From Octopus vulgaris (lineage: Eukaryota), in the NCBI GenBank assembly GCA_951406725.2, contig OX597827.1, forward strand, positions 31,558,001 through 31,622,000: DNA of 64,000 nt, read 5' to 3'. Shown one piece after another: positions 22,404-42,689 of this stretch. A program made the position numbers and the translations under genes. A model generated the notes under the pieces. That model had not been told where the DNA came from and made no database searches. It was given only the letters and a program-made list of their open reading frames with translations. Position 1 is the stretch's first letter; every line of letters starts with the position of its first letter.

Positions 22404-23596
22404 AAAAGAAAATGACTCTCCCCAGACACAACAGAATATGCTTCAACATACAAACTCACATAAAGAATCTTGCAAACCAAATCCCAAAACAAAATATATC
22501 ATCATTATCATCATTTTTCAACATCCATTTTCCATTCTGGCTTGGGTTGGACAGATTGACAGGTGTTGGCAAGCCAGGGGGTTGCACCTAGCTCCAGTAA
22601 CCTGTTTTGTAATGGTTCTATGGCTGGATGCCTTTCCTAACTTTATAGAGAGCACTGGGTACTTTTTTACAAGGTACCAGCATTAGTACTTGTTACCCCC
22701 CCCACACACACACACACACAGTGAGTTTCTTTTTGTTTCTGTTCACCAGATCCCCTCCTCCCATCACAAGGTGGCCAGCTGGCAGAATCGTTAGGATGGT
22801 GGGGAAAATGCTTAGCGGCATTTAGTTTGTCTGTACGTTCTGAGTTCAAATCCGGCCAAAGTCAACTTAGCCATTCATCCTTTTGGGGTCAATAAATTAA
22901 ATACCAGCTGTGTACTGGGGTCGATCTAATCGACTGGCCCCCTTCGCCAAAATTTCAGGCCTTGTGCCTATAATAGAAGGAAAGGATATGCTCAGCCCAG
23001 AGCTACAGAAGTAGACACGTACCCAAAGGGGTGCGCTGTGGAACTGAACCCAAAACCATGTGCTTCAGAAGCAGGCTTCTCAACTGCACATCCATAATTT
23101 ACTTGTGCTTATATGTGTGTGCGTATGTGTGTGTGTGTGCATGTGATTATGTGTGTGCTTGTGCATCTTTGTGTTTGTGTCAGTATCTCCACACCCATTG
23201 CTTGCCAACCAGTATTTGTTCATTTACATCCCCGTGACCTATCAGTTCAGCAAAGGAGACAGATGTAAATAAGTACCAGATTAAAAGTATAAGGATTGAG
23301 GGACAGGCGATTCATCTGACTAACCCTACAAAGCAGTGCTCCAGCATGGCCACAGTCAAATGACTGAAACAAGCAGAAGAGTGAACGAGTATGTGATAAG
23401 CAGCTGCTCCAAAAATTCCCTTGGAATTCTAAACAATCACTTTGCTAAAACAATATACAATAACACCATTTCTAGTTAGGATTGTCTTGAAACACACACA
23501 CACACACACACACACATACACACACACACACACATATATAAATACATATGTGTCTGAGTATATATACATGTATGTATGTATGTATGTATGTATGTA

Positions 23597-23643
<47 letters not shown>

Positions 23644-23675
23644 CTATAAATATATATATATGCATGCATATATAT

Positions 23676-24258
23676 CGTGACGCATATTTGCCATTTGAAT
23701 ATGGCTAACCCCTAAGGGTGGATGCTACTGTAGTTTGTAGCCCCAGGAAGATATCTCCTCCAGCTGGCTATAGACACACTATCTGTGTCCTCTCAGTATT
23801 TGTGAAGGGGAGTCATCCTCCCCGTCTTCAACTCATGATACAAATGGCAAATATGCGTCACGATGTGTTACCGCTACTGTTTATAACTTGCTCTGTGATT
23901 TATCATTGTTTGATTTCACTTTTTCAATATCAGTGTCAATCGACACTGGAAAAAGTATATGTATTTGTGAAGGGATCTGACTTCACGTCGACAACCATGA
24001 TTGTCACACGCTGATGAAAGGTAAACACCTTGAAACTCGGGTCCGTGTGTATCATGAGTTGAAGACGGGGAGGATGACTCCCCTTCACAAATACTGAGAG
24101 GACACAGATAGTGTGTCTATAGCCAGCTGGAGGAGATATCTTCCTGGGGCTACAAACTACAGTAGCATCCACCCTTAGGGGTTAGCCATATTCAAATGGC
24201 AAATATGCGTCACGATGTGTTACCACTACTGTTTATAACTCGCTCTGAAATTTATCAT
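23676..24258 (+). mobile_element. Non-coding HHR element: inverted arm + terminally redundant 352-nt unit, inserted in (TA)n
   Basis: 23676-23841 is the reverse complement of about 24048-24213; 23841-23907 repeats directly at 24193-24258. Confidence 0.85.
24005..24049 (+). ncRNA. Canonical type-I hammerhead ribozyme
   Basis: cacacg-CTGATGA-AAGGT aaac ACCTT-GAAAC-TCGG-GTC-cgtgtg: 6-bp stem I, 5-bp stem II, GUC cleavage triplet. Confidence 0.88.
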
Positions 24259-24385
24259 TATATATATGTATATATATATATATATATGTATATACATATA
24301 TATACACACATATATATATATATGTAAATATATATATATAAATACATATGTGTGTGTGTATATATACATGTATGTATGTATATAT

Positions 24386-24446
<61 letters not shown>

Positions 24447-24483
24447 GATGTATTTGTTTCAAGACAATCCTAAATATACATAT

Positions 24484-25029: not shown

Positions 25030-25520
25030 ACTATCGTTTAATGTCTGATTTCTCTGCTGGCATAGGTTGGACAGTTTGACTGAGGACTGGCAAGCCAAGA
25101 GGCCACACCAGGCTCCAATCTATTCTGGCAAGGTTTCTACAGCTGGGTGCCCTTCTTAACACCAACCACTCCGAGTGTAATGGGTGCTTTTTACGTGCCA
25201 CCAGCCTGGGAGCCAGTCAGGTAGCACTGGCATTGACCACACTCAAACGGTGCTTTTTATGTGCCACCGGCATGGGAGCCAGTCTGGCAGCACTGGCATC
25301 GACCACACTTGAATGGTGCTTTTTACGTGCCACTGGCACAGGAGCCAGTCTGGCAGCACTGGCATCGACCACACTTGAATGGTGCTTTTTACGTGCCACT
25401 GGCACAGGAGCCAGTCATGTGGAACTTTCATCAAACATATTCGAATGATGCTTTTTATGTGCCACTGGCACTGGAGCCAGTCAGGCGGAGCTACTGGCAT
25501 CGATCATGTTCAGATGTATT
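25030..25520 (-). mobile_element. RTE 3'-UTR-derived element with ~65-bp internal tandem modules; related copies at about 7460-7850, 10712-10975, 13730-13890, 20320-20425, 27005-27410, 32045-32390, 39090-39600, 61228-61680, 63712-63898
   Basis: Shares ggcgttaggaagggcatccagctgtagaaa...gacgttaaa(tga)n with the 3' UTR following the RTE ORF at 51860-52270. Confidence 0.8.
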
Positions 25521-42365: not shown

Positions 42366-42689
42366 GGAGTAAAGATTATTTGCCAACATAACATGGCAGT
42401 CCTGGTTTAGGACGAATGTTGCTGCAATTTAGCCCCAGGAAATATTGCCTCCAGCTGGCTATACAACATGATCTATGTCCTTATATTTTCAAACAAGGAC
42501 ATCTAGCACCCCCGCTCAGCTCAAAACAATATCTGTTGGGGTGCTAGATTCCCTTGTTCGAAAATATAAGGACACAGATTGTGTCATATAGCCAGCTGGA
42601 GAAGATGTCTCCTGGGGCTAAGTTACAGCAACATTCATCTTAAACCAGAACTGCCATGTTATGTTGGCAAACAATCTTTACTTTACTCC
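42366..42689. repeat. Inverted repeat (arms ~150 bp) related to the tail of the 352-nt HHR element
   Basis: 42366-42513 is the reverse complement of about 42538-42689; contains tagccccaggaa...ctccagctggcta...tgtcc. Confidence 0.85.

Follow-up and report, generated by a model that had tools for sequence, protein, structure and literature searches.

Non-LTR retrozymes of Metazoa are described as non-coding units of 150-450 bp that carry a type I hammerhead, have low GC content, occur in tandem copies and form a strongly folded monomer (Cervera and de la Pena 2020, PMC7229834); those of mussels measure 350-390 bp, with a helix III of two pairs and a tetraloop (PMC7229834). The same paper proposed Penelope-like elements (PLEs) as the mobiliser of metazoan retrozymes, and Li, Clavereau and Pollet (2026, bioRxiv 10.64898/2026.07.22.740005) concluded from co-occurrence and pLTR similarity in frogs that animal retrozymes are non-autonomous PLE derivatives. 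The enzyme that moves animal retrozymes and the RNA circle as its template have both been proposed before and not shown (PMC7229834; bioRxiv 10.64898/2026.07.22.740005). A hallmark of PLEs is a tail of 30-40 bp at one end only, accompanied by inverted 5'-truncated copies (PMC8557442), and in vitro work by Frangieh et al. placed this tail between two internal RT start sites (PMC11167929). Target-specific LINEs of the Tx1 clade include Tx1, which enters Tx1D, Tx1-Mar, which enters Mariner-N4, and Keno, which enters U2, while dependence on flanking transcription has been discussed for R2 and SINEU (Kojima 2015, PMC4494074). Recently active L1-Tx1 and Penelope families have been reported in cephalopods (PMC13282606).

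PMC7229834, PMC8557442, PMC4494074 and PMC13282606 are cited here and below from parts of their text. Within those parts, PMC7229834 describes neither fixed dual 3' ends nor a LINE target ('inverted' and 'Octopus' have 0 occurrences each), and the main text of PMC13282606 has 0 occurrences of 'ribozyme' or 'retrozyme'; 'tail' occurs 0 times in the main text of Li et al. 2026 (bioRxiv 10.64898/2026.07.22.740005). Among the papers listed by our literature search there was no report of a LINE targeting a retrozyme or of octopus retrozymes, and supplements or Repbase may already hold these families.

The element described here lies in a window of 64,000 nt of Octopus vulgaris DNA, the whole stretch that was analysed. 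We consider it probable that the element is a non-coding 352-nt non-LTR retrozyme inserted in trans by a PLE into (TA)n, probably from a circle, and that its family hosts a LINE that inserts beside the ribozyme.

The window copy and its hammerhead

A repeat search of the window returned a direct repeat at 23838-23907 and 24190-24259 (70 nt, 93% identity, spacing 352), in agreement with the 352-nt period, starting at 23841 and again at 24193, that a sequence-only reading of this DNA had proposed. The true overlap of the direct copies is 23841-23907 with 24193-24259, which makes it 67 nt with four differences and not the roughly 66 nt first given. The direct arm (23841-24259, plus strand) holds 1.19 units of the 352-nt monomer, with monomer position 1 at 23841 and a 'long' 3' end, position 67, adjoining (TA)n. 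The same search found inverted arms at 23674-23847 and 24043-24216 (174 nt, 99%). The inverted arm proper (23674-23842, minus strand) comprises monomer 208-352 plus 1-24, ends at a 'short' 3' end, position 24, that also adjoins (TA)n, and matches 24048-24216 at 169 of 169 positions, so that the near-identical left arm of the sequence-only reading is fully borne out. The two arms meet through a 2-nt overlap (CA, 23841-23842). The (TA)n-rich target tracts, read from the sequence, lie at 23600-23675 on the left and 24260-24330 on the right, as the sequence-only reading had noted for both sides. The element itself was correctly recognised, and its ends move from 23676 and 24258 to 23674/23676 on the left and 24259 on the right.

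No ORF inside the element exceeds 101 codons, and the longer ones there are flanking microsatellite, consistent with the earlier statement that the element lacks coding capacity; an ORF with RT and GIY-YIG, as in an autonomous PLE, is absent from the unit. At 352 nt the unit is short, non-coding and low in GC, within the 150-450 bp of non-LTR retrozymes, and the predicted fold of the monomer has a z-score of -7.6. By structure, then, the window unit is classed as a putative non-LTR retrozyme. With its single hammerhead the window copy would not count as 'active' for Li et al., whose criterion is two HHRs.

The type I hammerhead motif with its distal stem I helix spans 23996-24056 on the plus strand, with cleavage predicted after 24043, matching the one clean GUC hammerhead of the sequence-only reading. 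Read directly from the sequence, stem I pairs CACACG (24005-24010) with CGTGTG (24044-24049), CTGATGA follows at 24011-24017, stem II is AAGGT-AAAC-ACCTT followed by GAAA, stem III has 2 bp with a TCGG loop, the cleavage triplet is GTC at 24041-24043, and the distal helix joins 23996-24001 to 24051-24056. Rfam gave nothing at gathering score in the window, and none of its 36 weak matches within 23600-24350 was a hammerhead; recognition of the ribozyme is therefore based on the motif and covariation. Across 14 family variants, which were hand-picked and are related, 92% of the cells of the named structure pair and 6 of 19 pairs have changed on both sides; 0 of 500 shuffles reach 92%, and structures slid along the sequence fall to 21-53%. 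Mismatches are frequent among variants in the base pair at the foot of stem II. Older retrozyme families (L156, L276, L321 and L332), 70-80% identical to the window copy, carry compensatory stem changes, and a type I hammerhead belongs to each unit, as the motif in the window and as variants in the family. At monomer 203 (24043 in the window) a common subfamily reads GTA rather than GTC, in 19 versus 24 contexts.

Several other repeats surround the element. Its microsatellite flanks contain a 17-nt inverted repeat (23476-23493 and 24455-24472) and a direct repeat of about 50 nt (23535-23590 and 24333-24385), each with one copy on either side of the insertion, and a tandem repeat with a period of 66 nt lies at 25183-25512. 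At 42370-42670 there is a palindromic element in which a 54-nt arm segment is 85-89% identical to retrozyme positions 259-312; it may be a related inverted retroelement or possibly a shared hairpin module.

Fixed 3' ends and probable mobilisation by Penelope-like machinery

Searching the genome with the monomer gave 2,659 candidates, full copies being 95-99% identical among 40 scored. Exact patterns matched 1,051 times (a 26-mer near the 3' end), 886 times (positions 219-243) and 49 times (this hammerhead variant), far beyond chance against 0 matches for each reversed-pattern control. Arms were sampled from the first matches among those listed for the 26-mer and for positions 219-243, all on contigs C1 and C2, and the sample from the second pattern is biased to longer arms. 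After duplicate loci were removed, 177 unique arms in 114 loci remained.

The 3' ends of these arms are bimodal: 101 are short, 82 of them exactly at monomer 24, and 76 are long, 67 of them at 66-70. The two ends are fixed, 43-46 nt apart, and ATAT or TATA directly follows 153 of the 177; the 5' ends vary. The sequence-only reading had proposed, as a check, to look for circular permutations or tandem multimers of the 352-mer. Tandems were indeed found, from dimers to multimers as in other retrozymes, with 51 of the 177 arms longer than 352 nt, running on into more monomer, and a maximum of about 9 units (L123), but free permutations were not, since only the 5' ends vary. The 67-nt overlap in the window therefore records the distance covered by reverse transcription. 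At position 22, terminal short ends frequently have TAT in place of GAT (16 cases), which suggests a start at 21-24 with target-derived bases. The overlap copies of the window element differ at 4 of 67 positions while its inverted arm differs at 0 of 169; the copy is young, as had been suggested, yet not unusually so for its family.

The 114 loci include 54 tail-out inverted pairs, and 53 of these join one short and one long end, so that the tail stands at one end only. In the window the corresponding 3'-terminal segment of the direct arm is 24217-24259 (plus strand), delimited from the family survey of 3' ends and with reference to PMC8557442 and PMC11167929. The 54 pairs supply the inverted 5'-truncated arm of PLE insertions, and the (TA)n target recurs at the 153 ends given above. 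As a control in the same genome we used a PLE with RT and GIY-YIG domains (775 aa, about 140 near-identical matches), in which 8 of 9 inverted pairs have one short and one long end, separated by about 30 nt. We conclude with high confidence that PLE-type machinery inserts the element, and the earlier proposal of more than one round of reading followed by PLE-type integration is supported for the family, with its two fixed ends and their pairing observed directly.

All of these PLE hallmarks (tail, inverted arm, TA target) would also be present if the 352-mer were an ordinary pLTR belonging to a coding PLE, every copy being an extreme 5' truncation, a reading that gains from the relation of frog retrozymes to pLTRs (bioRxiv 10.64898/2026.07.22.740005). 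Fixed ends attached to a coding PLE were part of the outcome that the sequence-only reading had named as contradicting it, and the 3' ends are in fact fixed. However, no common PLE ORF is joined to the arm in 62 free 5' flanks, drawn from the loci of the monomer search and the three exact patterns and hence from part of the family. Four of these flanks adjoin an inserted LINE, the only coding flank common to several loci, and two hold single PLE ORF fragments (L105, L088), which are unrelated single cases: in one a (TA)n tract intervenes, and the other has 45% identity. Together with the 51 arms that exceed one unit by continuing into more monomer, these flanks make an ordinary pLTR scarcely credible, and insertion of a non-coding unit by PLE machinery is the reading we retain.

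One candidate for an autonomous PLE, three loci with common sequence upstream of position 146, was set aside when the ORFs there proved to be those of a LINE. Two PLE families (842 aa and 775 aa) have no sequence in common with the retrozyme, so neither is shown as its partner; the tail in the control PLE measures about 30 nt, where that of the retrozyme measures 43-46 nt. The PLE family at locus L283 (G000:C17:8039800-8049700), with two ORFs of 454 and 775 codons in a 4,271-nt unit, is very young, and its tandem copies are 100% identical over 2,895 nt, with about 140 matches of equal score; by eye, a hammerhead-like motif with a CCGAAGA core stands about 140 nt before the short end. A PLE-like family at L271 (G000:C4:50166500-50172500), with 19,395 candidates and intact 842-codon frames, has by eye a hammerhead-like motif near its 3' end with a long insertion in stem II. 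Its proteins gave no Pfam match, and we label the family provisionally as Hydra clade.

The template of reverse transcription

A cleaved linear monomer was considered as the template and rejected as unlikely. Position 215 is reached by 104 arms; 93 of them are seen to run on across the cut site, leaving 11 stops against 7.9 expected (p=0.16), and the exact spacing across the cut site is kept in 142 of 143 copies.

From the anatomy of the copies we favour a circular RNA as the probable template. In 34 loci that have both kinds of arm, including loci from the monomer search and from the hammerhead-variant pattern, tandem units differ at 106 of 7558 positions (1.4%) and inverted arms at 107 of 6612 (1.6%; Wilcoxon p=0.89); between loci the figure is 6.6%. 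That tandem and inverted arms have diverged equally indicates that the units were near-identical at insertion and carried the haplotype of their locus, as re-reading of one circle would give. The window copy is reversed in this respect, 4 of 67 in the overlap against 0 of 169 in the inverted arm (uncorrected p=0.006 for this one locus among the 34), and its own divergence points in the wrong direction for a circle. Contigs of four sequencing runs, presumably of RNA, cover most of the element and are uninformative on circles, ends or level.

A read-through transcript of a young tandem array, long and left uncleaved, could instead have been the template, with PLE-type insertion, an incidental hammerhead and no circle; this is a real option because the anole PLE does not need hammerhead cleavage and uses uncleaved RNA as its main substrate (PMC11167929). 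HHR mutants leave PLE insertion in vitro unaffected (PMC11167929), and 8 of 9 predicted frog retrozymes failed to cleave in vitro (bioRxiv 10.64898/2026.07.22.740005). Arrays of the required length exist, as in L123, the window overlap is the more diverged of its two comparisons, and donors with less than about 0.3% divergence between units would be indistinguishable in the tandem and inverted comparison. Against this, if multimers were copied into multimers under heavy 5' truncation (in the least biased set the median arm is 164 nt), arrays could become shorter but never longer and their units should diverge; within loci, however, units agree as closely as inverted arms, against 6.6% between loci. 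The hammerhead, moreover, has persisted, with compensatory changes, in families that are 70-80% identical. We regard the uncleaved multimer as unlikely and continue with the circle.

In the mechanism that we propose, tandem copies would be transcribed, their hammerheads would release monomers, and ligation would close these into circles. A PLE protein would then nick both strands in (TA)n, and cDNA would start at monomer 21-24 and 66-70. Each cDNA would run a variable distance round the template, after which two could join head to head or one could be fixed alone; the window copy would represent 1.19 rounds from the long site and 0.48 round from the short site. The family thus offers tests from the genome alone, namely the two-start-site PLE signature of 53 in 54 inverted insertions and the equal divergence of tandem and inverted arms, and start sites and intact candidate PLE ORFs are now named for an in vitro assay.

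A LINE at the ribozyme and comparison with known systems

The LINE was first met as common sequence upstream of position 146-148 in three loci. It is 5.3 kb long, with a CCHC ORF1 and an ORF2 of APE-RT-zinc layout, and its Pfam domains (zf-CCHC, Exo_endo_phos, RVT_1 and zf-RVT) are those of the L1/Tx1 group. The best solved relative of its protein is human L1 ORF2 (E 4e-64), the best named relative is from Argonauta, and one copy (L172) has an intact ORF2 of 1,146 codons. We use the label Tx1 as an assumption from domain layout and habit. No LINE sequence occurs in the window, where the target site (23986-24004, plus strand; monomer 146-164) is empty and abuts hammerhead stem I; in occupied copies this site is duplicated on both sides of the LINE.

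A pattern for the 3' end of the LINE gave 47 matches, 23 of one type and 24 of another. The homologous retrozyme site follows 22 of the 23 (for 20 the retrozyme belongs to a close subfamily, for the other 2 to families 73-80% identical), and the remaining copy is off target with its own 13-nt duplication; among 17 inspected of the 24 copies of the other type, 0 lie in a retrozyme. One copy outside the pattern (L156) sits within a 71% retrozyme family. Thirteen full-length copies have retrozyme up to position 162-164 upstream, with duplications of 17-19 nt, and in two loci (L132 and L178) private variants are present in both copies of the duplication. Most copies thus share one target and have target duplications, as in target-specific L1/Tx1 LINEs. 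Three truncated LINEs (L179, L332 and L152) still have retrozyme upstream, and the first is a tandem in which the target was regenerated. Position and duplications are observed directly, and from them the LINE is very probably site-specific for the retrozyme, beside the ribozyme.

The duplicated site contains the 5' strand of the distal helix, and because the duplication spans that strand the downstream hammerhead remains whole. We propose that a LINE of L1/Tx1 type would nick at monomer 145/146 and duplicate 146-164, and that in a LINE transcript reading through, the hammerhead would cut 58 nt beyond the LINE end. Variable poly(A) was not seen at the LINE 3' junctions. None of the listed contigs from runs presumed to be RNA bridges the LINE-retrozyme junction, which carries no weight for or against expression. 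Dependence of the LINE on the hammerhead is a tentative suggestion. An equally tentative extension is a parasite system of three tiers, in which a Penelope RT would roll round a ribozyme-made RNA circle from two fixed starts, while a LINE specialised on the ribozyme would be transcribed by the retrozyme, have its poly(A) replaced by the hammerhead cut 58 nt past its end, and be guided to new copies by the retrozyme flanks in its RNA.

A different history would have one or two chance LINE insertions into a retrozyme, followed by amplification of the composite as a giant retrozyme. Haplotypes of LINE and host agree in part (Mantel rho 0.35, p=0.0002), and three copies (L167, L169 and L174) are truncated within the LINE without retrozyme directly upstream, L167 and L169 having no retrozyme remainder further upstream; some composites may therefore have moved as units. 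Among LINE-bearing loci, 15 have retrozyme directly upstream, and in every one it is at least 164 nt long, where 42-56% would be expected, an excess that could come from homology-assisted targeting, a preference for transcribed multi-unit copies, or composite movement. But the LINE has entered this one site in retrozyme families that are 70-98% identical to the window copy, and the duplicated sequence is peculiar to each family; truncated and tandem LINEs (L179, L332) retain the target. Arms stop at about 0.4% per nt, which makes 13 full passes of 5.3 kb unlikely. LINEs differ pairwise by 2.0% and host retrozymes by 8.7%. Finally, L176 mixes donor and target types: its LINE has a B-type haplotype, and positions 94-156 are B-type although the rest of the retrozyme is A-type. 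This mosaic points to a co-transcribed retrozyme leader from the donor, and at least one LINE copy probably brought upstream retrozyme sequence with it. We consider amplification of a giant composite highly improbable and repeated insertion at the ribozyme the better account.

At L165 an inverted pair has been rearranged, and both of its arms contain a LINE. More diverged LINE copies (91-93%) sit in the older retrozyme families (L156, L276, L321 and L332). A sister LINE subfamily (L155, L158-L163, L303-L310 and L323), 89-92% identical in the 3' UTR and clustered on contigs C27 and C2, has a different, looser target motif with duplications of 13-17 nt, and a target switch between close relatives is possible.

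Compared with the metazoan non-LTR retrozymes of PMC7229834, as far as the cited parts of that text describe them, the octopus family is alike in unit size, type I hammerhead, low GC, tandems, strong fold and a helix III of two pairs with a tetraloop. It differs in that most octopus copies are shorter than one unit and often inverted, and circles were demonstrated there by northern blot and RT-PCR whereas the circle here is deduced from genome copies. We share with Li et al. 2026 (bioRxiv 10.64898/2026.07.22.740005) the conclusion that PLE machinery mobilises such repeats, but our evidence is the insertion signature, and pLTR homology to the two PLE families is lacking. EN+ PLEs (Craig et al. 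2021, PMC8557442, in the parts cited; Frangieh et al. 2024, PMC11167929) likewise have partial tandems, an inverted 5'-truncated copy, a tail at one end, a (TA)n bias and a hammerhead upstream of the 3' ends, whereas the octopus unit is without an ORF and its tail measures 43-46 nt against 30-40. A LINE homing beside a hammerhead would be a new type of target for site-specific retrotransposons, possibly with a dependence on RNA processing as well. With the Tx1-clade LINEs in the cited parts of PMC4494074 it has in common an L1-group APE-RT organisation, target duplications and insertion into another repeat at a fixed position; it differs in a 3' junction free of variable poly(A) and in its target, which is a hammerhead retrozyme entered beside the ribozyme.
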